Source: a virus. From it: a DNA stretch of 64,000 nt. Of the stretch, positions 26,954 to 44,977 are shown piece by piece. A model generated the notes under the pieces. That model saw only the letters and a list, made by a program, of their open reading frames with translations, was not told the DNA's origin and did not search any database. The stretch is taken from positions 1 to 64,000 of the IMG/VR virus record IMGVR_UViG_3300020205_002848. The stretch is one strand, 5' to 3'. Made by a program: the position numbers and the translations under genes. Each line of letters opens with the position of its first letter. Position 1 is the first letter of the stretch.

Positions 26954-28046
26954 ATTTTTCTAAAAATTCTGATTCAATTAGATAACCTTTGGTAGAATTA
27001 ATATATCTCTTAGTTATACATAAATTCTCTATAGATCCAATCGTTATTGGATCTATAGAGAATTTAAATCCATAATACACAGATACTTTATGATCAATAG
27101 TTGGGAAAAATCTATGAGTGTGACTTTTTGATAAGTATCCTTTTATAAATTCATCATCGTAATAATCAACGCCATTCCATTTTTCATATAAAAACTTCTT
27201 GTTAGAGTTGGTAATTCTTCTAACCAACTTTTTATACTTATACCAATCACTCGTTTCGGAATCAGATATAATGGTTCCGTTAGATTCTTTAGTATATTTT
27301 ATTTTTCGTTGTATATCACCAACTTTACTAACATTATCAACTCCATATCTTTCTAGACAAGTTTCTCTACACTTTTTAATAGTTTCTGATAATTTTGATT
27401 TAAAAATGGATTTCCAATAGTCAGTCTTTGATAAATATTCATTACCATATCTTTCTAAAAATGTTATTTTTATCTTTTCAATAGTTTGTATAATTTTAGA
27501 ATCAATTGTCTTCTTAAATTGGTCAGTCTTTGAGTATGAATCAACTCCATATTTTTCCAACATAGTTTTTTTAGATTTGTCTTTAAACTCATCAGATGAC
27601 ATCCACTTTCTATTCATCTCTCTACTTTCATCAGTTTTGAAATAAGAGTCAACTCCATATTTTTCCAACATAGTTTTTTTACCCTTTTCAGAACCCTTTT
27701 GAATACCTTTCCATTTAATACTCTCTGTCAATTTAAACTCATCAGTCATTGAATATGACTTAACGCCCCATTTTTCTAAACATGTTTTCTCCTTTACATG
27801 ATTTTTACACATAAAGCAAGAATAATATCCTTTGTCACTTCTGTTTTTATTAACTAAATATTTCGAATAGGGTATATGGTTTTCGGAACTACATATTTCA
27901 CAAATAGCTGTTATTTTATTCTTTGTACCCACTGGTAAGTCATTAACATTGACGAAAATCTCATTAGATATTGTATATCCTAAATTTAAATAGTAAGATC
28001 TATTTCTCAAATTAACTTTAACCAAAACTTTATCCTCCTTAATCAT
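26943..28046 (-). mobile_element. Free-standing HNH-type homing endonuclease with repeated KKT(M/C)LE(K/R)YGV motifs
   Basis: N-terminal CEIC/CFMC zinc site, five LE(K/R)(Y/W)G repeats, C-terminal TIDHKVS...NLCIT..INSTKG; divergent from polB across a 77-bp gap. Confidence 0.75.
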
Positions 28047-28123
28047 ATAAACTATATACTTTTTATTATATATAAAATTATATAAGTCCCATTAGAGACA
28101 AATTTTAAAAAAAAACATAAAAA

Positions 28124-29589
28124 ATGACAAGAGAAGAAAAAATATTCAAGATCGAGTCTTTAAAAAAACAAGCGAGCGAGCTAAAGAAGGAAGCGGATTA
28201 CTACAACGCACTTCAGCTCGCTCTTGTTTAGCCCCCGGTATTTATTATCGGGGGCAAAAGAGACTAAAATTAGTTCTAAATGGAAGTTACGGCGCATTCG
28301 CTACATCCTACTTTATATTATATAATAACCACGTAGCTGGTACAATTACTGCACAAGGCAGGGACCTTACACAAACAATGGACAGGGTCAATGAAGACTA
28401 TTGGTATAACCAGTGGCACAACGACCATGAACTTCATTTTAAATTAGGTATTAAAGATGTAAGTGAAATATCTAAAAGTGAACCAGTTTCTATATATGCT
28501 GATACTGATTCATTATTCGTTTCTTTCAAACCAGCAATTGACCATTGTAATTGGAAAGATTTAATATTCAATAAAGAATATTTAGATTCGATTGATGAGA
28601 AGTTTATCATATTAACAAATGATGAGACAAAAACAAATAATCCTAATTGTTTAGGAATCGCATCTAACTTAGATGATTTATCTGAATTAATAAAAAATGA
28701 TTATAAAGTTTTATTATTCGATGGTAACTTTATTAAAGACAGAGGGTTGAATAAGATGATAAAAAATGGAGTATTCACATCTAGTATTGGGTGGAATTGG
28801 CCAAGTGAGCAAGACTTTATACAGGGTGTTGATCATTTTAGATTTGGTGGATACTTTAAAAAATGTTTAGAAGATTACGCATCATCTTTTGGTGTTGAAA
28901 ATAAAGAAGATTTTGAATTAGAAAGAATATCTGAATCGATTATCAATCTTGCTAAAAAGAAATATATTTGTCACATAACATATGAAGATGGCATCCCATT
29001 TGATAGACTGACTTATCTTTATCCAAAAGGTGTTGAGCTTGTTAGATCGTCTACTCCGGCATTTGCTAGAGATAAGATTGTTGGTATTGTTAAGTATCTA
29101 TTTACACACCCAGATACCTTTAATATAAAAGATTTATTAAAATTAGTTAAGGGTTTAAGGAAAGAGTTTGAGTTAGCTGATATTGATGATATCGCAATGC
29201 AGTCTTCTTGTTCTAATTATGATATTAAGGTTCTAAATGATAAATCATTACCTCTTCAATTTGTATCAGGTGCTCACTTTGCGGTTAAATCAGCAGCTCA
29301 CTATAACTATCTTTTATCAAAGAGTAAAGACCATCAACAAAAGTATGAGTTTATTAAATCAGGGACTAAGATTAAATACTTTGTATGTAAAGATAAATCG
29401 GTAACTGATATGTTTGCTTATATTAGAGGTTCTTATCCACATGAATTTGCACCACCTATTGATTATGATACACAGTTTTCCAAATCTATTTTATCACCGG
29501 TGAATTCTATTATAGAGCCATTGGGAATGCCAGAGATTACTAAAAGGTTATCAGTTGTAATGGATATATTTAGCGGTTTTTCGAAATAG
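28124..29589 (+). CDS. polB: Family-B DNA polymerase, C-terminal half (gp43B-like), interrupted by a 41-nt insert; join(28124..28225,28267..29589), about 474 aa
   Basis: ATG 28124 gives MTREEK...YYNALQLAL; after the insert comes KLVLNGSYGAF (motif B), then ITAQGR, IYADTDS (motif C), KKKY and KGVELVRSSTP. The ORF track start at 28378 lacks motif B. Confidence 0.88.
28226..28266 (+). other. 41-nt stop-containing hairpin insert (candidate ribosomal bypass gap or mini-intron)
   Basis: GTT TAG, then a GCCCCCGGTA-TTTAT-TATCGGGGGC stem; removing it restores Q-x3-K-x3-N-x2-YG. Confidence 0.8.
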
Positions 29590-30513
29590 TTAGAAGATTA
29601 TACCTTCAGGGTGTTTATTACTAAACACCTTTACTTTTCTAACAAAACTTGGATCAGTATCATCTTCAATTACATCTAGAACTGGAGAGCATATTAAATC
29701 TATTTTTGAATATTTATTATTAGTTAATGACTTTTTAGCTTCACCTTCTCTACTTTTAACCTGAACTGTATAAACTACTGAACCCCTTTTCATAATTAAG
29801 TCAATTCCATATATCATATCAATCCAATCGCCATCACCACCTTGGTATAATATTTCAAAACCTTTTGATTTAAAATATTCAGCAACAAAGTTTTCAGCTT
29901 CTTCACCGATATCACTCATTTTTCTATTAAATGAAACATATTCTCTTACATCAAAATTATCTCTTATTATCTCTTCAACATTATTTGTACTAAAAAATAC
30001 CTTTAACCAAGATTTCAAATCAGCGACATTTAATTTTTTTATTTCTTCTATTTTTCCTAGAAGTTCTAAGACATCATATAATATATCAGCTTGATCTGAA
30101 TAGTTGGTATTCAATTTATTAACAGGGTGGTATTCACCATTAGCATCTACTACTCTAACCAATTCTTTTAAATTAATTGACCAATAACCTGTTGGATATT
30201 TTTTTATATCAGGATATTTACCGGTTTCGAATAATATTTTAAGAGGTTCTTGATAGAATTTATTATAATTTTTCTTACTTGACATATCTAATAAAATATT
30301 ATCAATAATACCTCTCATATTTAAATTATAAATAAGAAATTCTTTAAGATTACTTAATTTTGAAAAAAGAATAAGATTTTTTTCCTTTTTAGGGGTTTCG
30401 ATAACTTCTTCTTTATCATCTTCTTTTTTGAAAAGTGGATCACCTTGATAAGCGTTTTCAAAACCAAATGATAACTGTCCTTCTTTTATAAATTCATTGT
30501 ATTTTTTTATCAT
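29590..30513 (-). CDS. PD-(D/E)XK nuclease-domain protein with capsid-targeting-like N-terminus
   Basis: MIKKYNEFIKE start; GEEAE..V..YF...G...GIDLIM......VQVKS. Confidence 0.65.
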   Translation of the reverse strand: MIKKYNEFIKEGQLSFGFENAYQGDPLFKKEDDKEEVIETPKKEKNLILFSKLSNLKEFLIYNLNMRGIIDNILLDMSSKKNYNKFYQEPLKILFETGKYPDIKKYPTGYWSINLKELVRVVDANGEYHPVNKLNTNYSDQADILYDVLELLGKIEEIKKLNVADLKSWLKVFFSTNNVEEIIRDNFDVREYVSFNRKMSDIGEEAENFVAEYFKSKGFEILYQGGDGDWIDMIYGIDLIMKRGSVVYTVQVKSREGEAKKSLTNNKYSKIDLICSPVLDVIEDDTDPSFVRKVKVFSNKHPEGIIF

Positions 30514-30545
30514 AATGGTATATATTAAAAAAAGATATATAATTT

Positions 30546-30776
30546 ATGAAAAATGATGAATTATATCCATTCTATTTAGTCTATCTAGATATTAGACTTA
30601 GTGGTCTAAAAATATCAAATGGTTCTTACTCTTTATTAAAAATGAGTAGAAGTTCTTTCGAAGACTTTAAATATAAATTTGAAAATGATGAACTTTTTTC
30701 AGAAAAGATTATAAAAATAAAGACTTCTGAAATAAGAGATAAAAAAATAGACGATTTATTTGATGATTTTAATTGA
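30546..30776 (+). CDS. Hypothetical protein with C-terminal IRDKKIDDLF motif
   Basis: 76-aa ORF. Confidence 0.65.
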   Translation: MKNDELYPFYLVYLDIRLSGLKISNGSYSLLKMSRSSFEDFKYKFENDELFSEKIIKIKTSEIRDKKIDDLFDDFN

Positions 30777-31155
30777 AGAGATAAAAGTTGATAATACCAA
30801 TATTAGGTTTTATGATGGAATTGACTTCAATGAAATATTGAATCATGCAAAAGATGGATCAAATGGGTTTATTTTTTGTTACATAGACAGTTGGGAAAAA
30901 GAAGTTAAATCTTATGAAAGAGATAGTAAATTAGTATCTATTTTAAATAAATCAAAGTTTAATAAATTCAAAAGTGAATACATAGATAATAATTATGTCT
31001 CGATTTACCAATTGTCAAATACAAAGGTGGAAACTTTACACCAAATAATCAAAGAAAAGGTGATAAATAACCAATTTCATGACCATCCTTGGGTTCCAAT
31101 TAGTGGATTTTCATCAGGTGGGTGGAAAATATCAAATAGTGAAGATCCTAATTAA
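30763..31155 (+). CDS. Hypothetical protein
   Basis: ATG at 30763 overlapping the upstream gene; internal ERDSKLVSIL. Confidence 0.65.
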   Translation: MILIEEIKVDNTNIRFYDGIDFNEILNHAKDGSNGFIFCYIDSWEKEVKSYERDSKLVSILNKSKFNKFKSEYIDNNYVSIYQLSNTKVETLHQIIKEKVINNQFHDHPWVPISGFSSGGWKISNSEDPN

Positions 31156-31176
31156 ATATATACTTTAGTGAGAATT

Positions 31177-31671
31177 ATGAAACATTTAATGAGATATGAA
31201 GGTTATACATCTATGGAAAGAGTAGATGACATTTTAGATAAAATATCTAAATATGGTATAAAATCGCTTACTCAGTTAGAAAAAGAGTTCTTAGATTCTC
31301 ACAAATCAGGGCACGAAGAAGAATTACATGTAAAATTAGCAGAGTATGAGAATGAAACTACTTTTGTTGATGATAATGGTAACTTTAAATTTGAATTTCT
31401 CAATTGTGAAGAATATGGTGGTGAAAAACATTATACAGGGGTTTTATATGTACCTGATCTAATACTAAAAAGTGGTAAAAGAATTCAAGGTATTTTAGGG
31501 GGTAAAATAATCGTTTATGAAAATGGTGGAATTTCTCCGGAATTTTATTCAGTTTCAAAAGACCCAAACACACATGAAAACTATGAAATTTTCGATTTCT
31601 GTGAGGGATTAGAGTATGAATTGGATTCATTTTTAGATTATGTGGTTGATGAACTAGAGGATAAAAACTAA
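31177..31671 (+). CDS. DUF6576-like motif protein with capsid-targeting-like N-terminus
   Basis: MKHLMRYEGY start; VDDILDKISKYGIKSLTQLEKEFL. Confidence 0.65.
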   Translation: MKHLMRYEGYTSMERVDDILDKISKYGIKSLTQLEKEFLDSHKSGHEEELHVKLAEYENETTFVDDNGNFKFEFLNCEEYGGEKHYTGVLYVPDLILKSGKRIQGILGGKIIVYENGGISPEFYSVSKDPNTHENYEIFDFCEGLEYELDSFLDYVVDELEDKN

Positions 31672-31712
31672 AGTTTGATATTTAATATATAATAAAAAAA
31701 AATAAGATTATT

Positions 31713-32261
31713 ATGATTAAAAAATATAATCAATTTGTGGATAGTAAAGCAAACGAAGAATTTACGTTTAGTGATACTGCACAAACTCCGGTTAGACCTG
31801 ATGTTAGACCTGGCGTTAAACCTGAAGAAGAAATAACACCATCAAAACCATCACCATTTAAAAGAAACAGACCATCTGTTGAGCCACAACCTAAAGCTAA
31901 TTTAGAAATGGAAATGGAAGATGAAGAAGTTGAAGTTGATAAATACACACACGCTTTGAGAAAATTAGCAGAAGCTTTAGGTTCTGAATATAATGAAAGT
32001 GATAAATTTGTGATGGTTGATGGTAAGAAAGTAATTTTCCCACCGGAAACTGAAAAATATCACGTAGAAGGTATTAAAAAACCATTCGCTACTTTAGAAG
32101 ATGTTATTTCTCATTTTGAGACTCAAGATACTGAAGAAATAGAGAATAGAACTGAAGAGGCATCAGCTGAGATGGATTCTATTAAAGACGAATCATTTTT
32201 AGATTCAGGTGAGAACCAATTTGAATCGAAAAGTTATAAACTTAAAAGATTTAAAAAATGA
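31713..32261 (+). CDS. Putative internal head protein, Pro/Glu-rich
   Basis: MIKKYNQFVD start; TAATATATA upstream. Confidence 0.65.
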   Translation: MIKKYNQFVDSKANEEFTFSDTAQTPVRPDVRPGVKPEEEITPSKPSPFKRNRPSVEPQPKANLEMEMEDEEVEVDKYTHALRKLAEALGSEYNESDKFVMVDGKKVIFPPETEKYHVEGIKKPFATLEDVISHFETQDTEEIENRTEEASAEMDSIKDESFLDSGENQFESKSYKLKRFKK

Positions 32262-32371
32262 GATTAATTTTAATAATTGTAACTTTATTGATTATATCAT
32301 CATGTAAAACTACAGAAGAACATTGTGACGCATACTCACAAAATGAAATAAAAAAAGACCATCAAATTTGA
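32258..32371 (+). CDS. 37-aa lipoprotein (not in the ORF track)
   Basis: MRLILIIVTLLIISSC-KTTEEHCDAYSQNEIKKDHQI*; signal peptide with ISSC lipobox; ATGA overlap with the upstream stop. Confidence 0.7.
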   Translation: MRLILIIVTLLIISSCKTTEEHCDAYSQNEIKKDHQI

Positions 32372-32383
32372 TGGTCTTTTTTT
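32350..32383. terminator. Bidirectional intrinsic terminator
   Basis: A7-GACCATCAA-AT-TTGATGGTC-T7 between convergent genes. Confidence 0.85.
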
Positions 32384-32398
32384 ATTTTTAAATAATAA

Positions 32399-32707
32399 TT
32401 ATTGATCCATTTCTTTTTCCTTTTGTATCTTACTTATAATATAACCAGATACTGCAAACTCAGCAGCTGACCATAAAAGGAATTCACCCATTGTAAGTGT
32501 TGGATATTTCTCCATTAAGAAGAATATCATACCCCATTGAGCGATTAAAAAAGCCATTCCTGACTCAATTCTCTTTTTTGAAAAGAATGAACTACTATTA
32601 GAATATATTTTTAATAATTCTGTAATACCCCATTTTATATTCCCCCATCCAAAAAACCATTTTTTCTTTGTTGGTTTTGTATCCAACTCTTTGTTTTCCT
32701 TTACCAT
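32399..32707 (-). CDS. Small membrane protein, holin candidate
   Basis: Two hydrophobic helices with charged ends. Confidence 0.5.
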   Translation of the reverse strand: MVKENKELDTKPTKKKWFFGWGNIKWGITELLKIYSNSSSFFSKKRIESGMAFLIAQWGMIFFLMEKYPTLTMGEFLLWSAAEFAVSGYIISKIQKEKEMDQ

Positions 32708-32784
32708 AGTGATTAATTAATTTTTATAAATTATATATAAAATTAGGAAAAGAACTTTTGTCAATATATACAACGATATTATAT

Positions 32785-33258
32785 ATGAAATTGATAAAAA
32801 CACTAAAATTTCTTTTAATTTCTGAGCATCAACACTTTTTATCAGTAGATGTTACGACTTATAAAAGATGGAAAATACTAATAAAACTGGTTATAAATCT
32901 AAATAAGAACTACAAAACTTGTGAAATATATAGAAAGAAATTCAAATACTTAGAAGACTTTGTAGTTGTTGGACTTAGATATAACGGGAAAAATGTTAGA
33001 AGAAGAACATCTGGATTCGCTAAAGAATTTGTAGAACAACATAAAGACTCTAAATGTATTTACTGTGACATTTCTTTAACACCTGAAAATGCAACAGCTG
33101 ACCACATAATTCCGATTTCATCTGGTGGAAATAATTCCCAGGTTAATTTGATTGTGTGTTGTAAAGATTGTAATGCTGAAAGAGGAAATTTAGAATTTAG
33201 TTCATACTTAGTTCAGAAAAATAAAAATCACAAAACATCAAGAAATTTATTTATTTGA
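32785..33258 (+). CDS. HNH endonuclease
   Basis: CIYC...ATADHIIPISSGGNNSQVNLIVCCKDCNAERG. Confidence 0.88.
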   Translation: MKLIKTLKFLLISEHQHFLSVDVTTYKRWKILIKLVINLNKNYKTCEIYRKKFKYLEDFVVVGLRYNGKNVRRRTSGFAKEFVEQHKDSKCIYCDISLTPENATADHIIPISSGGNNSQVNLIVCCKDCNAERGNLEFSSYLVQKNKNHKTSRNLFI

Positions 33259-33831
33259 TATTTTAACCTTTTTAAAAACTTTGAAATTATCTTCCCAAGG
33301 AATAAAAACTACACCGTCAGCCAAAACTTCAAGTTTTATTTTACCAATCTGACCTTCTTTCAATATGTTAAGTTTTTTAACAGGTATTATACATTTCCCA
33401 TTTTCAACCTCACCTAAGAACATAATATTCCAATCATCTGATTCTATTACTAATCTAGTAGTTACTTTCGATGTATCAGTCCCATCTATGTGAATATCAC
33501 AAGAAAAGTTTTCATTAACATCTTGATATAATTTATAATAATTGGTGTTTGTGTTTTCGAATTGTAAATTACTTTCAAGTGAATTGTCTTCATCATCTTC
33601 ATCATCTTCATCAAAATCAAAATTTTGTTTATTTTCAACATCTTGATCATTTAGATTTTCTTTCTCATTTTCTTGATCAACTTCTACAGTTTCTTCAAAA
33701 TCATCTTGTTCAAATGAATAATCTTTAACATCATCCTCTTCATCAAATGAATCATCATTTAAAATTGGCGCACTTTCATTTATAAATTTATTGGATATAA
33801 AATCTTTGAAACTTATCACATCTTTAATCAT
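33247..33831 (-). CDS. Acidic putative virion protein
   Basis: VISFKDFI..FINE N-terminus, acidic linker, beta-rich C-terminal domain. Confidence 0.6.
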   Translation of the reverse strand: MIKDVISFKDFISNKFINESAPILNDDSFDEEDDVKDYSFEQDDFEETVEVDQENEKENLNDQDVENKQNFDFDEDDEDDEDNSLESNLQFENTNTNYYKLYQDVNENFSCDIHIDGTDTSKVTTRLVIESDDWNIMFLGEVENGKCIIPVKKLNILKEGQIGKIKLEVLADGVVFIPWEDNFKVFKKVKISNK

Positions 33832-33841
33832 GATTTATATA

Positions 33842-34237
33842 TTATTTTTTAATATCAATTTTTATATTTACTCCAGAATTTATAAATCTTTCAAAATCAT
33901 TAGTTGACACTTTTATATCCTCTTTTTTCTCTAAAACCTTTTCATAATCAATATCATTTACTCTACAATATAATTTTATTATTTTTTCGGTTTTCTCATC
34001 TCCTATATTCTCTCTTAACTTATTCCATGGATTTCCATCTATATAATCTTTAAAAGGATATCCTCCTGATCCACCTCTTTTTACTTCTAAAAGAATGAAT
34101 ATTTCATCCCAGGTCATATCTATATTTTCCCATTTGAGATTTAGTTCATCCCAATCTAAATATTTCTTACCATTTGATATTTCTTCATCAGACCAATCAA
34201 CATTGGTTCCTAGAAGAGATGAGTATTTTAACGACAT
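33842..34237 (-). CDS. Hypothetical Trp-rich protein
   Basis: 131-aa ORF, periodic W in DWDELNLKWENIDMTWDE. Confidence 0.6.
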   Translation of the reverse strand: MSLKYSSLLGTNVDWSDEEISNGKKYLDWDELNLKWENIDMTWDEIFILLEVKRGGSGGYPFKDYIDGNPWNKLRENIGDEKTEKIIKLYCRVNDIDYEKVLEKKEDIKVSTNDFERFINSGVNIKIDIKK

Positions 34238-34304
34238 AAATATTATAAGCTTTTTAGTATATATAAAAAATGTAAGATTAAACTATTAATATATATATCA
34301 AATT

Positions 34305-37300
34305 ATGAATTATAATTTAACAGGAGTCACGGCCTCTCAATCATATGGTAGATTGGTACAAGTAGAATTAGGAACACCCAATTCTTTTTATGATGGGTTT
34401 GGTAACCCAATATCAATTGGGGGAGTCGGTCCAACTGGATCACCTGGACCTGCTGGTCCAACATTTTTAGTTGGTAACGCAGGGGATAATAGAGTAATGA
34501 CTTCAGTGGGTACAAATTCAGCATATGCTGAATCTAATTTAACATTTGATGGATCGACCTTGAATGTAGTTGGTGATATAACAAGTACTTCTGTTAATAC
34601 AGATTCACTTGGTGTTGATTACTTAGACGCATATCATGGGACATTTTCAACAGTTGATACATCTTACTTATATACTGATAGTTTAGTAATCAATAGTATT
34701 TCTTCTACTTCGAGTTTGACTAGTTATTTAGTAATTGATGGGAGTGGAAATGTTTATTCACAAGTAGGTATTATAGGTGGTTCTGGATCGAATGGATCAA
34801 GTGGGACTTCTGGATCAAACGGACTTGATGGATCAAGTGGAACATCTGGATCAAACGGATCTGATGGACTTGATGGATCAAGTGGAACATCTGGGTCTAA
34901 CGGAATTGATGGACTTGATGGATCAAGTGGAACTAGTGGATATAACGGAATTGATGGATCAAGTGGAACTAGTGGATCTAACGGAATTGATGGATCGAGT
35001 GGGACATCTGGATCAAACGGATCTGATGGACTTGATGGATCGAGTGGAACATCTGGATCAAATGGAATTGATGGATCAAGTGGAACAAGTGGATCTAACG
35101 GAATTGATGGATCATCTGGGACATCTGGGTCAAACGGAATTGATGGATCAAGTGGAACAAGTGGGTCAAACGGAATTGATGGATCAAGTGGAACAAGTGG
35201 GTCAAACGGAATCGATGGAACTTCAGGGACAAGTGGATCAAACGGAATTGATGGATCATCGGGAACAAGTGGTGTTAATGGATCATCCGGAACAAGTGGA
35301 TCAAGCGGAACTGGGTTTAACTCAATTATAAATCCAACTGATTATAGAATATTGACATCTACTGGGTCTTCTACGAATTCAGCATTGGCTAATACAGGAT
35401 TAACTTATGATGGTAATACATTCTCTGTTCATGGGGGTACTATTGACTCAGTTAAATATGTTGATTTTGGTGAGTATGCAATATCAGCGACTAAAACAGG
35501 TAGAACTTTCTTTGATGAAACTGACAAAGCTCTATCTTATTTCCCTGATACTGGTCAAGATGTCTTGGTTAAAACCGGTCAGCAATTATATACAAGAGTT
35601 TATAATAACTCTGGAATTTCAATACCAAAGGGGTCAGCTGTTAAGATATTATCAGCTTCTGGTAGTTTACCTTGTGCTACTTTAGCATTGGCTACACATA
35701 CTGTTAATAATCAAGTTTTAGGACTAGCCGCTTCAGATATTCCAAATTTAGGAGCAGGTTTAATTTTAAATAAAGGTATATTAAGAGGAATTGCTATAAA
35801 TACATTTAGTGTAAATGATATTGTATACTTATCAGATACTATACCAGGTGGGTATACAAAAACCCTATCTGTTTTACCAGGTGCGATAACCCCTAGAACA
35901 AATCAAATAGGGTATATTTTAGCTACTGGTTCAACAACTGGTGAAATATATGTTGATGTGGTTAATGAACCAGTTAGTTTAAGTTTAACTAATATTGAGA
36001 GAAATATATTAGAGGGTAATGTTATTTCAACTGGGGCTTACGCTTTCGGTGGTATAACACAAACATCAGGGACTACGTTTACTATTGGTACTGTTAGTGC
36101 TTGGATAGTTCAAAATACTTATGAGTATGCAACATTACCCGATGTTATTAATGTTCAATATCCTATGACTACTGGGTTGACAAGTTCTTATATAAATACA
36201 GCGGATTCAACTTATTTACTATTAACTCGCACATCTTCTATTACACAACAAGGGACTTTTCCAACACCTCAACAAAGAAGAGAGAATGTATATTTAGGAA
36301 AAATAACACACCCCAATAGATCATCATTCCAGAATGTTAATAATTCAGCGGATTATGATGTTTCCCCAATGTCGTCGCTAAGAGACTTATGGGCACCAAT
36401 TAAACTTATCAATGATGGTATTGTTGTTTCTTCAAATGCTGCTAATTTAACTATTAAAACATCATATGGTAAATTATGGGGTAATGGTATTAACTTCCAA
36501 TTAAATGAATTAGATCCAAATAGTTTGGTTATATCAGCAACCACACCATCAACATTCCAATATAGAACACAAACCGGTGGCACTTTCAGTAATACTACTA
36601 ATATAGACCCTGGATTCTATGACTTAGCTGGAGTGAGAACTGCTATTCCTGGTTCATCATCAAGAGCTAGTAATCAAAGAATCTATCTATTCCCAACTGG
36701 AATAATTAGAATTCAGTATGGCCAACAATGGTATGCTAATTTAACAGATGCTGTTACTGGTTTGGAAGGTGAGACATTTATAGAATATCCTAATAATAAA
36801 GAATCTGGTATACTAATAGGAATTTTAAGTGTTGTGAAGGGAGCGACCAATTTACAAACTATCGCAGATGCTAAATTTCAATTTGTTTCTAAGTTTGGTG
36901 AATTATTAGGGGGGACCGGTGGTTTATCAACAACGACATTACAACAAGCTTATGATAACTCTACTAGTCCTGAAATATTAACAGATTCTACATTGGGTGC
37001 AGTTACATTCAAAAGAGGAAGTACATCCGATAGTGATAATGTTATTGAGGTTTTAAGTGGATCTAATGGTGTTACTTTTAGTGTAACTGGTCATGGTAAA
37101 ACAACTACAAATACTTTATCAATTAAAGGAATCGGTTCAACATCATCAGCAACTAAATATATGGTTGTTGATGATAGTGGTGATACTTACTACCAAACTA
37201 CAAATATTGGATCAATTGGGGCTACTGGGGCAACTGGATTAGGGGGAGCTTTGGGTAATTATGGAGCATTTTATGATACAGCAACACAATTAAACCCAAC

Positions 37301-38003: not shown

Positions 38004-38009
38004 ATAGAT

Positions 38010-38052
38010 TTGATTGTGGTTTTAAAAATATACTTTTTACTACCACAATCAA
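38010..38052. terminator. Hairpin between convergent genes
   Basis: ttgattgtggt ... accacaatcaa 11-bp inverted repeat. Confidence 0.55.
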
Positions 38053-38058
38053 GTAAAT

Positions 38059-39255
38059 TTATAATTTGTTAAAATTATCAAATTTCCTATTATATTCATT
38101 ATTCTCATCTATATTCTTTTTCTTTCTAAATTTAGGAATCCATTTTATATCCAAAATGTCAGAACTGAAGAATTCTTCCAATACTAACTTCTTATAAGGA
38201 TCTTCAACTAATTGAGCTAATTTATTTATATCTTTAACTTTACTTATTCTATGAAGAAGACTATATGGGTCTTTTGAATTCTTTTTATCAACAATATCTT
38301 CAAATAATTTTCTCCATAAGAAAATGGGATAACCTTCTTTAAGTTTTTCTTCAGATTTTTTATAACCAGCTTCATCATTATCAAAAAAGTATTGAATATC
38401 CAACTCATTATTCTCAAGGAAAGTATAATCAGTATTTACACCCACCAGTCCAATAGAATTTGGATAAAATAAAGAATCTAAATAACCCTCAAATACAGTA
38501 AGTCTATCCATTAAATCAACATTTAAAATATTGAAATAATATGAAAGTTTATTGTAAACAACAATCTGTGATATATCCATATCGACTATATTTTCCCTAC
38601 CTATATTAGTCCATTCTAAAAGATTTTCATAATTGTAAATCTTAAACATACGCCTCTTACCCTCTTTAAGATTACGGACTTGCATACCCAAAACTTTAGT
38701 ATCTCTACGATTTAACATAATTATAATCCACTCTGATTCATCTTCATTCTTCCAATACTTTGCTTGGTAAATATTTTTATGAAATTCAGGTGGGATTCCC
38801 CTACCAATTAAATACTTATAAACACCACCATTTACTACAATAGGTTTAAAGTCTGTTATAGGGGTTAATTCTTGACTAAATACTCTTTCCAACTCTGATA
38901 ACTCTATCAAGTCATCAAATTTAGCATCAACAAAGTCACCAGCATAATCAGAATAGGTCATAACACTATTTAAGTGTTCTATCATTTCAAGCTTCTTGTC
39001 AGGGTCTAATTGTTCATTGAAATCTTTGCAGAGTTTATCTAAAGTTGTTCTTCTATCACAATTAAAACAGATGAAAAATAATTTATTAAAGTATAAGTTA
39101 CCCCGCTTTGCGTATTTATTTTTACCGGAATCACCACAACAAGGACAGCAAAAGTTTAGCCTATCATTATAGACTACTATTTTTCTACGAGTAGGGTCTG
39201 AAAATTCTTTATTTAAAATGTTCTGAATTAACCCTGTTACATAAACCTTATCCAT
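38059..39255 (-). CDS. DNA primase (T4 gp61-like)
   Basis: NFCCPCCGDS...KRG...CFNC zinc domain; YLIGRGI; TOPRIM VFEGYLDSLF and FFDNDEAG; KDIN. Confidence 0.9.
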   Translation of the reverse strand: MDKVYVTGLIQNILNKEFSDPTRRKIVVYNDRLNFCCPCCGDSGKNKYAKRGNLYFNKLFFICFNCDRRTTLDKLCKDFNEQLDPDKKLEMIEHLNSVMTYSDYAGDFVDAKFDDLIELSELERVFSQELTPITDFKPIVVNGGVYKYLIGRGIPPEFHKNIYQAKYWKNEDESEWIIIMLNRRDTKVLGMQVRNLKEGKRRMFKIYNYENLLEWTNIGRENIVDMDISQIVVYNKLSYYFNILNVDLMDRLTVFEGYLDSLFYPNSIGLVGVNTDYTFLENNELDIQYFFDNDEAGYKKSEEKLKEGYPIFLWRKLFEDIVDKKNSKDPYSLLHRISKVKDINKLAQLVEDPYKKLVLEEFFSSDILDIKWIPKFRKKKNIDENNEYNRKFDNFNKL

Positions 39256-39374
39256 TTTTATAATTTTTTAATCATATGTATTATTATTCATATAATAAAT
39301 ATCACACTCCCAATTTTATAGATTGGTAAAAGAAGTAAGTTTAAATCAAAAAAATTAATTAGTATATTTATATT

Positions 39375-39632
39375 ATGAGAACATTAAAAGAGTTATATGA
39401 TTTGGGGTTAGATGTCAGAGATTCTGATATCCCAAAAATCTGGAAAGAAAGTTTTGAAAAATTCATTTTTGGATCTACCTGCCAAGTTGAAACCAATGAA
39501 GATGGATCAATTAGAGAATTTATATACTATGGGTCTGATTTCCGTCATTGGTATTACCAAAATAAAGAAGTTATCGAGAGGGATATTAAAATAGATGAAT
39601 TATTAGATAATAAAAAAAGTCCTCTTATTTAG
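39375..39632 (+). CDS. Hypothetical protein with C-terminal ERDIKIDELL motif
   Basis: 85-aa ORF. Confidence 0.65.
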   Translation: MRTLKELYDLGLDVRDSDIPKIWKESFEKFIFGSTCQVETNEDGSIREFIYYGSDFRHWYYQNKEVIERDIKIDELLDNKKSPLI

Positions 39633-39644
39633 AGGACTTTTTTT
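39612..39644. terminator. Bidirectional terminator overlapping convergent stop codons
   Basis: A7-GTCCTCT-TATTT-AGAGGAC-T7. Confidence 0.8.
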
Positions 39645-40800
39645 GTTTATTTGTTTCTTTTATTTCTTTTCTCATTTCTTTCGAATTTCTAGCCAGATAA
39701 TCTACTTGTCTTTTAAATTGATTATAAAAGTCATCCTGTCTATTTTCAGGACCAGATGGGTTTAATCTACCAGTCATATTACCAAATTGAGTACAAGTAA
39801 GTACTGAACTTTCAAGACCAGTTGATTGATTTGAAGTTTCAACTATTTTGTTGAAATTTTTGAAACTTTTTACAATTGACTCTTTTTTATAAATTGTTGT
39901 TTGGGTTTCATCTCCACCTGTATCAAATAAATAAAACTCTTTTACATTTGAGTAAGTCTCATTATGAAGTTCTTTCAAAACCTCATCCATGTGTCCGACA
40001 TTCCCTGGATCATCATCAGAAAATCCAACTTTAGCAACCACTTTCCAATTTTCACCGCTCTTATTAAAATCCTCTTCTAATTCTTTTGCATAATTATCAC
40101 ATTTTTTAACAAATTCTAAGAAAGCATCTTCTTTTGATTTCTCTGGGTTGTCTGGTTTTCCTCCTCTTGATGGAGCAGATACTCCTATAAATTGACATTG
40201 ATCTAAATAATCATTTATTAAATCATCATCTGATTTAATAGGTTGATTGAATAAGTGAGAATACATTTTTAAATGATCCATCATACTCGCTCTTTCTGTT
40301 GGACTAAATTTACTTATTATAAACTCAACTCCTTCTCTCATAGGTCCTGAATTATTATTAGGCCCAGATTCGTGTCCTCTAGCGGTGATTATAGAAAAAA
40401 GAGAACCAGTTGTAAGACATTTTTTGAATTTATCATAAGATTTTGCGAACATTCTATTGTTTATCGCTTTTTCAACATCTTTAACAAAGATTTTTGGTTC
40501 AACCTCATCTCTAAAATATCTAAATGAATCTTTTGCGTATCCAGTTATAACTTGACCATTATATTCAAAATTTTCAACACCTATAATTGAACGGTATTCC
40601 GCGAAATCTTGAGTAGACATTCCTACTTCTTCACCTTTATCATTTGAAAGAAATATTTCAGTTGGCATATGTAGTATATTATCATCCCAGTCAAATGCAT
40701 AATAAAGCAATTCATATACTTTATAATCTGAACCAGAAGCATCTTGAAATTGACCTTCTCTATACTCTTCTTTAAGGTATTGATTAAACTTTTTAATCAT
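39625..40800 (-). CDS. HAD-superfamily phosphatase-like protein with capsid-targeting-like N-terminus
   Basis: MIKKFNQYLKEE start; YAFDWDDNI (motif I), IITARG (II), GFSDDD..N (IV). Confidence 0.7.
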   Translation of the reverse strand: MIKKFNQYLKEEYREGQFQDASGSDYKVYELLYYAFDWDDNILHMPTEIFLSNDKGEEVGMSTQDFAEYRSIIGVENFEYNGQVITGYAKDSFRYFRDEVEPKIFVKDVEKAINNRMFAKSYDKFKKCLTTGSLFSIITARGHESGPNNNSGPMREGVEFIISKFSPTERASMMDHLKMYSHLFNQPIKSDDDLINDYLDQCQFIGVSAPSRGGKPDNPEKSKEDAFLEFVKKCDNYAKELEEDFNKSGENWKVVAKVGFSDDDPGNVGHMDEVLKELHNETYSNVKEFYLFDTGGDETQTTIYKKESIVKSFKNFNKIVETSNQSTGLESSVLTCTQFGNMTGRLNPSGPENRQDDFYNQFKRQVDYLARNSKEMRKEIKETNKQKKSSK

Positions 40801-40806
40801 TTTAGG

Positions 40807-41133
40807 TTATTTTTTTTTGTTTAAAAATGATTGGAAAGATTCTAAAGCGGAACCTTCTACTCTTTTCTCATCTTCTTCTTCTTGAGACTCATCTTCATCT
40901 TCATCTTCATCATCTTCTTGAGACTCTTCTTGACCAAAATCTTCTTCTTCTTGACCAAATTGACCAAATCCTTGAACTTCATCATTATCAGACTCTTCAC
41001 CTTCTTCACCTTCTTCGATTTCGATTGTGAATTCTTCGATAACTTCTTCGTCTTTAGTAGCATTAACAGAGATAACACCTTCTAATTCTTCGATACTTAT
41101 TACATATCCGTTTATTTCAACACTAGTTTTCAT
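40807..41133 (-). CDS. Very acidic small protein
   Basis: Glu/Asp-rich; C-terminal LESFQSFLNKKK; TAATATATA upstream. Confidence 0.7.
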   Translation of the reverse strand: MKTSVEINGYVISIEELEGVISVNATKDEEVIEEFTIEIEEGEEGEESDNDEVQGFGQFGQEEEDFGQEESQEDDEDEDEDESQEEEDEKRVEGSALESFQSFLNKKK

Positions 41134-41225
41134 ATTTTCTATTTTTTTTATTATATATTAAAATCCAATATCGCTTTTATATAAAACTTTATCTATTTTT
41201 TTTATAAAAAACAAAAACTATTAAC

Positions 41226-41888
41226 ATGAATAAGGACTTAAATAAATTTCTAAATAGTCAATCAATATCAAGTACATTTCAAAATGATTATTTTAAAAAA
41301 ATGCAAATACGAAATTCAACAGCTAATCTCCTAGAAAGTAATGGGATGCCAGTTGATATTTTCTCAAAACTTTTAGATGATAGAATTATCTTTCTTACTG
41401 ATGAGGTTGATTCCGATATCTGTAATATAATCAAAGCTCAATTGCTTTATTTAGATATGGAAAGCTCTGATGATATATCAATTTATTTAGACACTCCAGG
41501 TGGATCTGTTTATTCAGGATTGGGACTTTTAGATGTTATGGATTATATAAAATGTGATATATCAACTGTCAATACAGGACTTGCTGCATCGATGGGCGCT
41601 GTCATTCTATGTTCTGGTACAAAGGGGAAAAGAAAAGCTCTTAAAAGAAGTAGGACAATGATCCATCAACCGATGAGTTACGGTGGTTATGTTCAACAAG
41701 CCTCTGATATGGAAATTGAAGCAAAAGAAATGAACTCACTTAAAAAGGAATTATATGAGATAATTTCAGACAGAACTGGTCAAAATTATGATAGAGTTTA
41801 TAAAGATGGTGATAGAGATTATTGGATGTCTTCACAAGATGCTAAGAAGTATGGAATGATTGATGAAATCGTGGTAAAAAGAAAGTAA
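41226..41888 (+). CDS. clpP: ATP-dependent Clp protease proteolytic subunit
   Basis: DIFSKLLDDRIIFL, AQLLYL, TPGGSV, GLAASMGA (catalytic Ser), MIHQP (His), DRDYWMS..AKKYG.ID (Asp). Confidence 0.95.
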   Translation: MNKDLNKFLNSQSISSTFQNDYFKKMQIRNSTANLLESNGMPVDIFSKLLDDRIIFLTDEVDSDICNIIKAQLLYLDMESSDDISIYLDTPGGSVYSGLGLLDVMDYIKCDISTVNTGLAASMGAVILCSGTKGKRKALKRSRTMIHQPMSYGGYVQQASDMEIEAKEMNSLKKELYEIISDRTGQNYDRVYKDGDRDYWMSSQDAKKYGMIDEIVVKRK

Positions 41889-41889
41889 A

Positions 41890-42639
41890 ATGATAAATAA
41901 AATATTTAACGAGAGTAATTTAGAAACTATGTTAAAAATTACAGATAAGTCAATTTCTGGAATTATAACATCACCACCTTATAACATCACCTCTAAAAGA
42001 AAGGATGGTTACTATAATAATGGATATTCTGATATGGATAATCTAACCCCAGATGAGTATTTAGAAGTAAGAACAAATGAGTTTAAAGAATTTTCTAGAA
42101 TAATGGAAGATAAAGGTGTTATTTGTTATAACATATCATATCATAATGAGAATCCGATTCTACCAACTTTATTGATTGCTAAAATTCATAATGATACAGA
42201 CCTAACAGTTGCTGATATTATAACTTGGAAGAAACCAGTTGCAATTCCATTTGCGACAAGTCCAACTAAGCTATCAAGGATATGTGAGTTGATTTATGTT
42301 ATTGTTAAAAAGGATCATTTACATGATTTCATGACAAATAAAGAAATTAGTTCGGTTAGTAAAAAGACGGGTCAGACTTTTTATAAAAATTACCAAAATA
42401 TAATTGAAGCCAAAAACAATGATGGTGTTAATTGTAAATTGAAAGCTTCTTTTTCAGAAGACTTAGTCAATAAACTACTTAATATTTATTTCCCTATTGG
42501 TTCGACTATTTACGACCCGTTTATGGGCATATCGACAACTGCTAGAGCTTGTGAAAAGTCAGGTAGAAACTTTATAGGATCTGAATTAGACAAAGAACAC
42601 TTTGAAATCGGATTAGAAACACTTAAAGAAAAAGTTTAA
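41890..42639 (+). CDS. Orphan beta-class N4-C/N6-A DNA methyltransferase
   Basis: ITSPPY motif IV near the N-terminus; YDPFMGISTT motif I near the C-terminus. Confidence 0.88.
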   Translation: MINKIFNESNLETMLKITDKSISGIITSPPYNITSKRKDGYYNNGYSDMDNLTPDEYLEVRTNEFKEFSRIMEDKGVICYNISYHNENPILPTLLIAKIHNDTDLTVADIITWKKPVAIPFATSPTKLSRICELIYVIVKKDHLHDFMTNKEISSVSKKTGQTFYKNYQNIIEAKNNDGVNCKLKASFSEDLVNKLLNIYFPIGSTIYDPFMGISTTARACEKSGRNFIGSELDKEHFEIGLETLKEKV

Positions 42640-42643
42640 GCAT

Positions 42644-42675
42644 AAAAAAACCACTCAAATAATTTGAGTGGTTTT
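42644..42675. terminator. Bidirectional intrinsic terminator
   Basis: A7-CCACTCAAAT-A-ATTTGAGTGG-T4 between convergent genes. Confidence 0.8.
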
Positions 42676-42692
42676 AATTTTTTCAGTAGAAA

Positions 42693-43022
42693 TTACTCAC
42701 CTTGTTTTTTAGGTCTTGGTTTTCTACGAGTTTTAGCTTTAGGTTTTTTCTCACCTTCAACCTCTTCAACTTTAGGTTGTTCAACTTTAGTAGATTTAAC
42801 ATTAGCCTTTATTTCTTTAGCTGTTACCTTTTCTTCTTCAACTTTAGGTTGAGCAGCTTTAGGTTGAGCAGCTTTAGGCTTTCTTTGAGTTTTAGGTTGT
42901 TCAGCTTTAGGAGCTTCATTCTTAACCTCATTCTTAACAACAGGAGATTTTTCAATACTCACTGTTTCCACTTTAGTTTGATCCTTACCAAAACTAAAAA
43001 ATCTTTTGATAGATTCCCACAT
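42693..43022 (-). CDS. Lys-rich low-complexity protein
   Basis: PKAAQ repeats, basic tail. Confidence 0.6.
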   Translation of the reverse strand: MWESIKRFFSFGKDQTKVETVSIEKSPVVKNEVKNEAPKAEQPKTQRKPKAAQPKAAQPKVEEEKVTAKEIKANVKSTKVEQPKVEEVEGEKKPKAKTRRKPRPKKQGE

Positions 43023-43123
43023 AATTAGATTTATTTTTTTTGTATATATAGAAAATATTCATCTCCCTATATAAAAAACCACAAAAAATTCGATGAAAAG
43101 ATGGATTTTTTATATATAAATTT

Positions 43124-44596
43124 ATGAAATTTAGATATGACAAAGAAACCGAAGAGATAGTAGTATCAGAAGCTTCAAGAATTGAATATCACCAATTAGA
43201 AATTTGGTTGACTCGTCATGTCAAGGGATATAAGTATATGCCGGCATTTAAAATGGGAGTTTGGAATGGACAACAAACATATTTTAGAAACGGTAGATTC
43301 AATCTAGGACTTTGGAAAGAAGCTATGAGGGGTTGTAAAGAAATAGAAATGCCTTTTATACTTGAAAACAAAAATGATTTTCCACTTAATAGAGATGTTA
43401 CTTTAGAAGGGGTTAAAGAATTTTGTAAAGATTTTTTTAAAGAACATAAAGTTAGAACAAAAGATGGTCAATGGATACCATTTGCTCCATATGATCATCA
43501 AATAGAATCTGCTTATAAAATTCTTAAAAATAGATATTGCATGGCAGAGGTAGCAACATCAGGTGGTAAATCTCTAATAATATCTATTGTCATGTTTTAC
43601 ACATTGAAAAATATAGACGAAACTGCTAAATTTTTAATTATTGTACCATCAATAACTTTAGTAACACAATTTTATGATAATATAATAGAATATAATTATG
43701 GTATTAATAACTTATTGGAGATGAGAGAAAAAGAATCTGACCACATTTTAACCGGTACTCACTTACCATGTGATGTTAGAGTTGAAGAGGTTATGTCAGA
43801 GAGACCTAGAAAATTCTCAGGTACACAAAATGCTAATGTTTATGTTGGTACTTATCAATCATTAGAGAAATGGCCAAAAGAGTTTTTTCAACAATTTCAC
43901 ACAGTTGTAACAGATGAGGCACATGGGGCTAAAGCAAAAACAATTACTACTATTCTAGAGAATACTTTCAAACATGCTTACTCGAGATTTGGAGTTTCTG
44001 GTACATTTCCAGAAGATGATACTTGTGAAATATTAACAATACAATCAGTGTTGGGTCCAAAAATAACAGAGGTCTCTGCTAATGAATTAAAAGAAAAGGG
44101 AATTATAACACCTATGGAAATAAAAGCTGTTATAATGAATCACAATGACTTAGAATTTGATGAGAGAATGACTATTATTAAAAGAAGTGGTAATGGTAAA
44201 GATGCTTTCGAATTGGAAAAACAATACATACATGCTTCTGATAGAAGATTGGACTTTATTAAAAAAATAGTTGATAAATGTGATTCAAATACTTTACTAC
44301 TTTTTCACACAATTGAATATGGTCAAAGAATATTTAATAAACTAAAAGAGGATCTACCTGATAAAGAATTTTACTATATTGATGGTGAGGTTTCTGGTAA
44401 AAAAAGAGAAGTAATTAAAAAGGAAATGGAAATAACCAAAGAGAAAGTCGAATATACGATTTTGAATTTTGGTGATTATGAGATTGAGTTTAAATCAGAC
44501 TTTAAAATATTACTAAGTGATGGATTATTTAAAAAAGCATGTGATATATCACCAGATGATGATATTGATGATGATTTTATAAATAAATATAAATAA
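43124..44596 (+). CDS. uvsW: UvsW-like SF2 helicase, N-terminal part (motifs I-IV), ending in a Hint-like tail
   Basis: MPAFKMGVWNG, PYDHQ, ATSGGKS, IIVPSITLVTQ, TYQSL, DEAH, GVSGT, YIDGEV; motifs V and VI are absent. Confidence 0.9.
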   Translation: MKFRYDKETEEIVVSEASRIEYHQLEIWLTRHVKGYKYMPAFKMGVWNGQQTYFRNGRFNLGLWKEAMRGCKEIEMPFILENKNDFPLNRDVTLEGVKEFCKDFFKEHKVRTKDGQWIPFAPYDHQIESAYKILKNRYCMAEVATSGGKSLIISIVMFYTLKNIDETAKFLIIVPSITLVTQFYDNIIEYNYGINNLLEMREKESDHILTGTHLPCDVRVEEVMSERPRKFSGTQNANVYVGTYQSLEKWPKEFFQQFHTVVTDEAHGAKAKTITTILENTFKHAYSRFGVSGTFPEDDTCEILTIQSVLGPKITEVSANELKEKGIITPMEIKAVIMNHNDLEFDERMTIIKRSGNGKDAFELEKQYIHASDRRLDFIKKIVDKCDSNTLLLFHTIEYGQRIFNKLKEDLPDKEFYYIDGEVSGKKREVIKKEMEITKEKVEYTILNFGDYEIEFKSDFKILLSDGLFKKACDISPDDDIDDDFINKYK

Positions 44597-44604
44597 ATAT
44601 AAAT

Positions 44605-44947
44605 ATGGCTAAAATAATAGACAAAAGAAAAATAATCAGAGAAGAAGGGGCGACTAAAGTTTTAGTCGCCTCTTACTGAGGACGGTACATTATCCACAGG
44701 AGTATCGATAAATGCTATTTTTAATGTAATATTCGCTGATTCTTTTAAATCGGAGCAAATTATTATACAATCAATTGGTAGAGCACTTCGTTTACACTCT
44801 GATAAAAAGAAAGCAAATATCTTTGATTTGGTTGATATTTTTAATTCCAATAATATGAATAATATATTATTTAGACACTTTAAAGAAAGAGAAAAATTTT
44901 ACACAAAAAGACAATATCCTTACAAAATAATCAAAGTTAATCTTTGA
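44605..44947 (+). CDS. uvsW: UvsW helicase C-terminal part interrupted by a 7-nt insert; join(44605..44676,44684..44947), about 111 aa
   Basis: MAKIIDKRKIIREEGATKVLVASY, TGA, then in the +1 frame GTLSTGVSI (motif V), QSIGRALR (motif VI) and IFDLVD...RHFKEREKFY; not in the ORF track. Confidence 0.85.
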
Positions 44948-44977
44948 ATGTAGGGTGTTGTTTAAAATATATAATTT

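Follow-up and report, generated by a model that had tools for sequence, protein, structure and literature searches.

Candidate programmed translational bypass sites interrupt polB and a UvsW-like helicase gene in a huge lake phage

Programmed translational bypass has so far been described from one well-studied phage example, gene 60 of T4 together with its homologs, all of them in topoisomerase genes, and from one mitochondrial family. In T4, an endonuclease cassette splits an essential gene of DNA metabolism (gene 39/mobA/gene 60) and leaves tails on the two halves (10.1101/2022.08.31.505936; PMC5009743). The 50-nucleotide (nt) stretch bypassed in gene 60 is an untranslated, stop-containing gap that lies a few dozen codons past the new start; its take-off and landing codons match, one stem-loop is formed within it and a second lies 5′ of it. 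The mobA element is lost progressively, the nuclease first and then the gap, and it has been shown for MobA that the inserted DNA destroys the recognition site (10.1101/2022.08.31.505936). According to the same study, the gene 60 cassette 'remains unique' and MobA elements occur only in Topo2L genes. A similar arrangement is found twice in a stretch of 64 kb (hereafter, the window), which comprises positions 1 to 64,000 of the 78.56-kb IMG/VR virus contig IMGVR_UViG_3300020205_002848. Here, the gene for the C-terminal piece of polB and the gene for a UvsW-like helicase are each interrupted, within a conserved motif, by a short insert that contains a stop codon. Comparison with related phages indicates that both interruptions are probably programmed bypass sites that were brought in by two different homing-endonuclease cassettes, and the best reading of the data makes them two convergent analogues of the T4 mobA/gene 60 bypass cassette.

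In the clade to which this phage belongs, polB is a two-gene enzyme. In complete relatives, the N-piece (exonuclease domain, about 500 amino acids (aa)) lies over 100 kb away from the C-piece; it was not found on the 78.56-kb contig. The C-piece (polB-C) is organised as follows.

28124 to 28225, plus strand: first coding segment of polB-C, 34 codons ending in ...YYNALQLAL, delimited by tblastn with an uninterrupted relative
28223 to 28225, plus strand: candidate take-off codon CTT (Leu, codon 34), the last codon required to restore QLAL-KLVLNGSYG
28226 to 28263, plus strand: untranslated gap, made of GTT TAG, a 10-bp hairpin with a C5/G5 core (28231 to 28255) and an A-rich tail
28264 to 28266, plus strand: candidate landing codon CTA (Leu), synonymous with the take-off codon CTT
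28267 to 29589, plus strand: second coding segment of polB-C, with motif B (KLVLNGSYG), palm and thumb; PF00136

The stop codon TAG (28229 to 28231) stands one codon (GTT) past CTT, and motif B resumes in another frame as CTA AAA TTA. Since two related loci (L001 and L002; relatives are given here as L numbers) read straight through this point as GCT CTT AAA TTA, the polB gene of the window carries 41 extra nt; the gap is also absent from L008 to L010. The second segment is 64-86% identical to most relatives over about 440 aa. The first ATG in the landing frame is found at 28378, beyond motif B, and the gap hairpin is the sole C5..G5 hairpin of the window. Take-off from the codon just before a stop (GTT or TTT) was considered as well and rejected, because the catalytic Lys of motif B would be lost.

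The second interruption affects a gene that most relatives carry as a single open reading frame (ORF) for a UvsW-like helicase of 536 aa, with no added tail.

43124 to 44596, plus strand: N part of the UvsW-like SF2 helicase with an added C-terminal tail (about 44449 to 44593); Pfam DEAD, ResIII and UvsW_N
44605 to 44676, plus strand: first coding segment of the helicase C part, 24 codons, MAKIIDKRK...KVLVASY
44677 to 44683, plus strand: 7-nt insert TGA G GAC, that is, the stop, one base and the candidate landing codon GAC (44681 to 44683); aligned with L003 and L004
44684 to 44947, plus strand: second coding segment of the helicase C part, with motifs V and VI (GTLSTGVS...QSIGRALR); PF00271; 81-87% identical to relatives

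An insertion of about 205 nt ends the first helicase ORF with the added tail and starts a new ORF at ATG 44605. The candidate take-off codon is TAC, codon 24 of this new ORF (44674 to 44676), which is followed by TGA; from GGT 44684 onward, motif V is read in the +1 frame. In relatives the sequence is TCT TAT GGT ACA, by which comparison the helicase of the window carries 7 extra nt. The added module is present in a subset of the 70 related helicase loci; it is in frame, unsplit and gap-free in L042, and L086 is split and gap-free. The tails encoded by 44449 to 44650 of the window (…EYTILNFGDYEIEF…DDDIDDDF / MAKIIDKRK…) are kept among cassette-bearing relatives, and in L042 they make up a single module of about 65 aa that is in frame. 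A Pfam search (E up to 5) detected neither an intein nor any other domain in the tail of the window or in the unsplit module of L042, and a reading of the tails as a split intein was rejected for lack of Pfam support.

The original prediction, made from the window alone, had argued that these breaks are unlikely to be independent errors. This was confirmed by an independent lake metagenome contig that spans 28091 to 28388 with the polB insert intact (four differences, which look synonymous, lie just 3′ of the landing codon) and by the many relatives that carry inserts; the polB and helicase interruptions are real and are not sequencing errors. RNA libraries were also informative. In one metatranscriptome, a 151-nt contig with a depth of 12.4 covers 28109 to 28249 without any difference, which corresponds to exon 1 and 24 nt at the start of the gap. 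Downstream parts of polB-C are covered by other contigs of the same run, but the region of the neighbouring nuclease gene is not truly covered. The 3′ junction is bridged by none of the contigs, and a joint that skips the gap is seen in no run. In a second RNA run (X17), a contig that matches 28287 to 28396 carries another C5/G5 hairpin at its 5′ end (GCCCCCACTGCGTAAGTGGTGGGGGCAAAA), joined just before TAC GGC; this is another polB gap variant, from a co-occurring strain. Thin as this evidence is, the RNA contigs fit an unspliced mRNA.

Both interruptions also share the design that had been proposed for them: a separately initiated C-piece, a position in a conserved motif, a stop codon and a strong 5′ stem-loop at the take-off codon.

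28174 to 28223, plus strand: polB 5′ stem-loop, -22.8 kcal/mol, z -5.5; the 3′ arm reaches into CTT by one base
44645 to 44674, plus strand: helicase 5′ hairpin of 13 bp, -20.1 kcal/mol, z -6.0; the 3′ arm reaches into TAC by one base

The polB gap hairpin with its outer CUCUU/AAGAG extension, folded as 28220 to 28270, reaches -23.9 kcal/mol (z -5.3). The three stems, all of them named in the original prediction, are far more stable than dinucleotide shuffles (z -5.3 to -6.0), none of 200 shuffles being as stable for any of them. A terminator scan returned nothing at the polB hairpin.

A tblastn search with an uninterrupted query identified short inserts of 36-48 nt in motif B in 20 of 32 related IMG/VR loci and in the complete relative G003 (at L228). 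These inserts comprise 19 distinct variants at five codon positions (after QLA, QLAL, KLV, NGS or NGSY), and motif B is exactly restored on removal of each of them. The spacer between take-off codon and hairpin measures 6 nt in 17 variants and 7 nt in two. The stop in this spacer abuts the take-off codon in four variants (the spacer then consists of the stop and another codon, in one case with an extra base), is located one codon later in 13 and is missing in two. The hairpin core is invariably C5/G5 except for one C4/G4, with stabilities of -14 to -20 kcal/mol, and the 3′ spacer between hairpin and landing codon has a length of 5-14 nt. Take-off and landing codons agree in their first two bases at every Leu, Ala, Val and Ser site (CTT/CTA, CTG/CTA, GCT/GCA, GCT/GCT, GTT/GTT, GTT/GTA and TCT/TCA). 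The change from take-off to landing is mostly from NNT to NNA within four-codon boxes, so that pairing of a single tRNA that reads by wobble could be weak at the first codon and complete at the second. The Tyr sites land on TAA, GAC, AAC, AAC and AGC, all of which except AGC keep two of the three pairs with the tRNA(Tyr) anticodon. The length of five gaps is a multiple of 3, and several gaps contain a stop in each frame, which neither frameshifting nor readthrough would rescue; frameshifting thus fails to explain the polB inserts.

The hairpin stem covaries. A comparison of 17 distinct polB hairpins shows pairing in 88-100% of them at stem positions 6-9, each of which has four to six types of pair. 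Over positions 6-11, pairs form in 86 of 102 cells, while shuffling gave 49.5 on average and 67 at most. In the 32 codons upstream, the 18 distinct insert-bearing copies display 2186 differences at third codon positions against 1088 and 855 at the other two; this excess indicates that the upstream codons are translated as protein and are under purifying selection. In many relatives, stops close the landing frame right before the landing codon, and no start codon follows. On the polB-C tree, neither the presence nor the type of insert is clustered, and C-terminal proteins that are almost identical have different sites or none, a distribution that fits a mobile cassette co-converting the nearby motif.

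In the helicase, seven distinct sequences have a gap, of 4, 6, 7 or 17 nt, in all of them right after the Tyr codon of VASY|GTLS and each with a stop. TGAGGAC (7 nt) occurs in the window and in L053, TGAG followed by TAC in L085 and the L066 group, and TGAC (4 nt) in L060. The gap of L109 has 17 nt and ends in TAA, and that of L052 (2530-2560) adds 6 nt in frame, so that TAT TAG TAA GGA places two stops between the Tyr and the Gly of motif V. The landing codon TAC is matched in L085 and the L066 group, and the TAC/GAC of the window agrees in two of three bases. The only route that would yield one and the same protein in all seven variants is a hop that starts at the Tyr codon and lands on the codon preceding GGN.

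In both families, the 5′ stem-loops are present only where there is an insert. At the Ala, Leu and Val sites of polB, the 66 nt that end at take-off fold with -20 to -28 kcal/mol, compared with -3 to -12.5 kcal/mol in insert-free loci, and the 3′ arm of the stem ends within a few bases of the take-off codon. A synonymous compensatory change is seen between the window (GAGCT...CAGCTC) and L030 and L228 (GAGTT...CAACTC), and different take-off positions have different 5′ stems (L037, L027). All seven helicase gap variants have a hairpin of 12-13 bp that ends at take-off (-16 to -21 kcal/mol), against a median of -4.6 kcal/mol for the same region of 39 distinct gap-free sequences (Mann-Whitney U = 0). 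This hairpin also shows compensatory changes, from G-C to A-T in L060 and from A-T to G-C in L052. Some finer resemblances that the original prediction had read as common signals were not kept in relatives. The CTCTT of both 3′ arms and the junction consensus ending in GAC are coincidences of the window; relatives have other codons there, with TCC TAT, TCA TAT or other tails. A mutually exclusive 3′ stem that pairs CTC with GAG is indeed present in the window; it is only partial in L025 and L026 and is no feature of the family.

A link to homing endonucleases was found at both sites. Next to polB-C the window carries the following gene.

26943 to 28046, minus strand: free-standing homing-endonuclease-like gene, 367 aa, with an HNH-type C-terminus; PHROG homing-endonuclease families and DUF7487; divergent from polB-C

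A homolog of this nuclease lies directly upstream of polB-C in 17 loci, and the insert is present in all 17. None of 11 assessable insert-free loci has the nuclease, and four loci have the insert without it. In the complete relative G003, frameshifted fragments of the nuclease remain beside an intact polB gap. Between the helicase halves, an HNH or homing-endonuclease ORF is found in L053 and L060. The helicase ORFs of the window are 8 nt apart and L053, which has the same TGAGGAC gap, keeps the nuclease gene; the window has lost its own copy. Loci that kept the gap and lost the nuclease thus exist. The idea that one nuclease serves both sites was rejected, since the polB and helicase nucleases are unrelated (E 3.2). 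The same result leaves the common trans-acting factor that had been invoked earlier without support.

Larger insertions in the same two genes were noticed on the way. In L028 (1391-3001), L037 (1373-3001) and L032 (1372-3001), polB-C has a second break, close to residue 115, where an insert of 1.6 kb encodes an ORF of 366-369 aa (in L028, phrog_22677, of unknown function), after which the downstream piece restarts. In L034, L035 and L036, tblastn alignments break and overlap at residues ~145-213 of polB-C with no change of frame, which suggests a variable or replaced palm/thumb segment. The helicase is fractured at residue ~266 in L090-L097, L105 and L109, and at ~200-217 in L100, L101, L107 and L108, by inserts of 1-1.4 kb with endonuclease-like ORFs (TnsA-like/restriction-fold Pfam matches below cut-off, one solid DUF723 match and one to a PHROG endonuclease); short gaps were not observed at these fractures.

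The anatomy of the sites, its conservation, the covariation and the nuclease linkage are observations, and the role of the ribosome and the protection of the target site are inferences. How the two genes might yield intact proteins can be outlined as follows. In polB, the ribosome would decode the 34 codons of the C-piece, peptidyl-tRNA(Leu) would leave CTT, and the ribosome would slide 41 nt past GTT-TAG and the C5/G5 hairpin until the same tRNA re-pairs at CTA; decoding would restart at AAA and give the intact motif B, QLAL-KLVLNGSYG. In the helicase, peptidyl-tRNA(Tyr) would leave TAC with TGA in the A site and move 7 nt to GAC, and decoding would restart at GGT, giving the intact motif V (VASY-GTLSTG) with a junction peptide ...VLVASYGTLSTG... 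that has no extra Glu-Asp. In both genes, the 3′ arm of the 5′ stem would be inside the ribosome at take-off, and each base slid would allow one more pair to form behind it. We infer that this pairing drives the forward movement; re-formation of a stem at the ribosome exit has been proposed as the driver for gene 60 (10.1101/2024.12.09.627546). The polB gap hairpin starts exactly 6 nt past the take-off codon; counted from where the P-site codon begins, this is about +10, so that the hairpin would lie near the mRNA entry channel and may stall decoding, in line with the finding that stem-loops block A-site tRNA binding at 11-12 nt (PMC7282821). The pause could then be due to the hairpin instead of an adjacent stop, and the tRNA would re-pair at the first matching codon past the hairpin. 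The extra DNA breaks a motif sequence that is presumably cut by the neighbouring nuclease, so that the carrier genome would be protected while its protein stays unchanged. The earlier suggestion of a structure-driven bypass that removes an endonuclease target agrees with the comparative data.

Several observations weigh against this interpretation. The polB stop is usually one codon past the A-site codon, unlike that of gene 60, and L013 and L036 have no stop in the spacer at all. The landing codons of the Tyr sites, including the GAC of the window helicase, are only partly matched, and the Tyr and Ser sites of polB have no 5′ stem-loop. The p-values for codon matching (binomial p 4e-9, seven pair types) and for nuclease linkage (Fisher p 1e-5) overstate the support, because the polB loci are related by kinship. 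The RNA contigs are short and of low depth, may reflect DNA carry-over and leave the 3′ junction unbridged. Finally, the G-rich arm of the polB hairpin lies 5-14 nt before the landing codon, and an internal Shine-Dalgarno (SD) role for it, parallel to the internal SD that gene 60 has 6 nt ahead of its landing codon, is doubtful in a phage that does not use SD sequences: SD motifs precede two of the 70 ORFs of the contig, against a background of 7%. The peptide upstream of each site, being part of the enzyme in insert-free relatives too, is uninformative on a nascent-peptide signal.

For the helicase site taken by itself, ribosomes might instead shift frame by +1 at TAC-TGA, as in RF2 (prfB); this is unlikely, although the arithmetic agrees with it. 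The 7 nt equal two codons plus one, the A site would hold a stop, like that of prfB, the first base of the landing codon GAC does not match, and the count also works for L053, L060, L066 and L085. Reading GAG GAC GGT would, however, add Glu-Asp to motif V, which is free of insertions in 39 distinct hop-free relatives (one or two residues would be added), and tRNA(Tyr) is unable to re-pair on ACU. Such a shift rescues neither L052, with two in-frame stops in 6 nt, nor L109, with TAA before GGT after 17 nt, and the landing codon TAC of L085 and the L066 group is a perfect match.

Excision of the inserts from RNA, already raised in the original prediction as a mini-intron, would be guided by the hairpin and carried out by a phage or host nuclease and ligase, leaving a continuous mature mRNA. 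RNA repair enzymes are frequent in huge phages, and the conserved polB hairpin stands at a fixed 6 nt from the 5′ junction. This explanation is nonetheless very unlikely, as neither junction has conserved letters of the kind expected at splice sites, the 3′ distance of 5-14 nt tracks the codon match and not a structure, and the helicase gaps of 4-7 nt contain no internal hairpin that could be recognised. Exon 1 and the first 24 nt of the insert are retained in an RNA-library contig, and the skipping joint was not found. Rfam returned no family at either site and no intron or ribozyme match in 27800 to 45200 at E up to 1, which, for inserts of 7 and 41 nt, also speaks against a self-splicing or otherwise known RNA intron.

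Absence of any joining is still harder to maintain. The genes would then be broken or come in extra pieces (a 34-aa peptide and a re-initiated polB remainder, and a helicase without motifs V-VI), with the function supplied by another polymerase or helicase or by a co-infecting helper. Fission is evidently tolerated in polB, which is already split by more than 100 kb in complete relatives, and the contig represents only ~32% of the genome. Purifying selection nevertheless acts on both flanks, re-initiation finds a landing frame that is closed by stops and free of starts in many relatives and a first ATG beyond motif B in the window, the spacing and codon-matching rules would be left without a reason, and the same interrupted state persists across many lakes and years. 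Least probable of all is a regulated switch, in which a phage-encoded or infection-induced factor would set the bypass efficiency and so gate replication proteins: the bypass of gene 60 is reported to be ~50% efficient, which makes dosage effects conceivable (10.1101/2022.08.31.505936), and both targets are replication or repair enzymes, but many close relatives lack one or both inserts and are otherwise unchanged, insert presence follows the nuclease genes and not the phage lineage, the two cassettes carry unrelated nucleases, and gene comparisons revealed no third site.

Programmed bypass, which accounts best for the two sites, places them in a class that is already known from T4 gene 60/mobA, contrary to the initial impression of an undescribed mechanism. 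Matched codons, a gap stem-loop (in polB) and a 5′ stem-loop are present, and a stop follows the take-off codon directly in seven of seven helicase variants and four of 19 polB variants. Both cassettes carry HNH/homing-endonuclease-like ORFs. Since MobA elements are confined to one fixed place in genes for the large subunit of topoisomerase II, the present cassettes do not belong to the homologous MobA family. Unlike in T4, the hosts are motif B of polB and motif V of a UvsW-like helicase, with no sequence similarity to gene 60. The polB hairpin has a C5/G5 core and a fixed 6-nt spacing, with the stop usually one codon further, and the polB nuclease lies upstream, on the opposite strand, at a split that is common to all relatives. 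The helicase gap has only 4-17 nt and no gap hairpin, and the phage does not use SD sequences. The byps of Magnusiomyces capitatus mitochondria resemble the polB inserts in being short GC-rich hairpin insertions in an AT-rich genome, in any frame, with two-out-of-three re-pairing; they occupy 81 sites in 12 genes (PMC5009743), whereas the hairpin described here is found in one motif of one gene and is linked to a nuclease gene. Stop-hops in E. coli constructs, a 29-nt hop in Prevotella loescheii and candidates in Streptomyces phages similarly involve a P-site tRNA that hops a stop to a nearby similar codon (PMC5009743, PMC10732093), but the present cases are natural, conserved, hairpin-assisted and cassette-borne. 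A review of 2016 listed few natural cases of bypass and knew of no natural in-frame stop-hop (PMC5009743); if hopped, L052 and the polB gaps of 36, 39, 42 and 48 nt would be such cases. Aquatic phage replication genes that are cut by an endonuclease gene have been described as fractured genes with split inteins and free-standing endonucleases, and bypass was deemed an unlikely alternative there for inserts with a length of hundreds of bases (Dassa et al. 2009, PMC2677866); in contrast to those genes, the helicase tails have no intein domain in Pfam. A full-text literature search returned no paper on translational bypass in polB or a helicase. The class of mechanism is known, and what is undescribed is its occurrence in these two genes and in this form; particular to the window are the presence of both families in one genome, the common geometry of the exit-side stem-loop and the unrelated cassettes.

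The switch had been imagined as phage-wide. Only polB and the helicase are interrupted among the 84 genes common to the contig and 100 kb of LR745206, and a frameshift-aware comparison of two complete relatives with each other and with the contig yielded no further site among ~250 shared ORFs; both comparisons, the one with LR745206 being frameshift-aware too, require an intact query copy and an upstream piece of at least ~30 aa, and short first segments may escape them. Five relatives (four near-complete genomes of 436-508 kb and one fragment) have 0-2 C5..G5 hairpins per record, a frequency at odds with a byp- or miniature inverted-repeat transposable element (MITE)-like mobile hairpin, and the sole such hairpin outside polB in these records is a terminator between convergent ORFs. 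A scan of IMG/VR for the pattern TTTTAR+C5..G5 gave, among the matches listed, mostly unrelated intergenic hairpins and was uninformative on other genes. It is possible, if less likely than not, that the two families are part of a broader and so far unpublished class of nuclease-borne bypass cassettes, whose hops of 4-48 nt would require nothing but mRNA structure. On this view, an exit-side stem-loop at take-off and, for long gaps, an entry-side hairpin 6 nt downstream would be enough, with neither an SD sequence nor a special nascent peptide being needed, even in hosts that do not use SD.

The contig belongs to a huge phage that is common in lakes: the polB stretch is present in at least 15 freshwater DNA runs, and the 20 runs that contain it come from 17 studies. 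Among database entries, the closest to it are unannotated 'uncultured phage' genomes of 630-640 kb (LR745206 and LR756502), and further relatives are IMG/VR contigs of 436-508 kb rated 95-98% complete; the completeness of the contig itself was estimated with CheckV. It is AT-rich (26-42% GC), and its start regions are A/T-rich, often with TATATA. Together with the near-absence of SD motifs, such starts point to a host that does not use SD, for example a member of the Bacteroidota. No phage tRNA(Leu) or tRNA(Tyr) was found on the 78.5-kb contig. Beyond the window (64001 to 78560), ARAGORN identifies tRNA-Ser(UGA) and tRNA-Ala(UGC); these are not the take-off tRNAs of the sites in the window, and Ser and Ala are take-off residues in some relatives. 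Between both sites, 41226 to 42639 holds a ClpP-family protease gene (PF00574, E 3e-64) just 5′ of an N6/N4 DNA methylase gene (PF01555), and 34792 to 35272 is a tandem array of ~13 copies with a 36-nt period, which encodes collagen-like Gly-X-Y repeats in a tail-fibre-like gene of 1232 aa.

If the two sites are bypassed as proposed, one genome adds two non-homologous families to those known, and their dozens of natural variants amount to a ready-made mutational series, with gaps of 4-48 nt, five take-off positions, covarying stems and both matched and mismatched landing codons. With these variants, the trigger of take-off, the driver of forward sliding and the choice of the landing codon become testable. 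The findings also support the idea that homing endonucleases hide their own target sites in invariant motifs by means of untranslated gaps. For annotation, they imply that essential genes of this kind are called fragments or pseudogenes unless bypass is allowed for. Should the wider, structure-only class turn out to be true, bypass would follow simple and portable rules and would include the first natural in-frame stop-hops.

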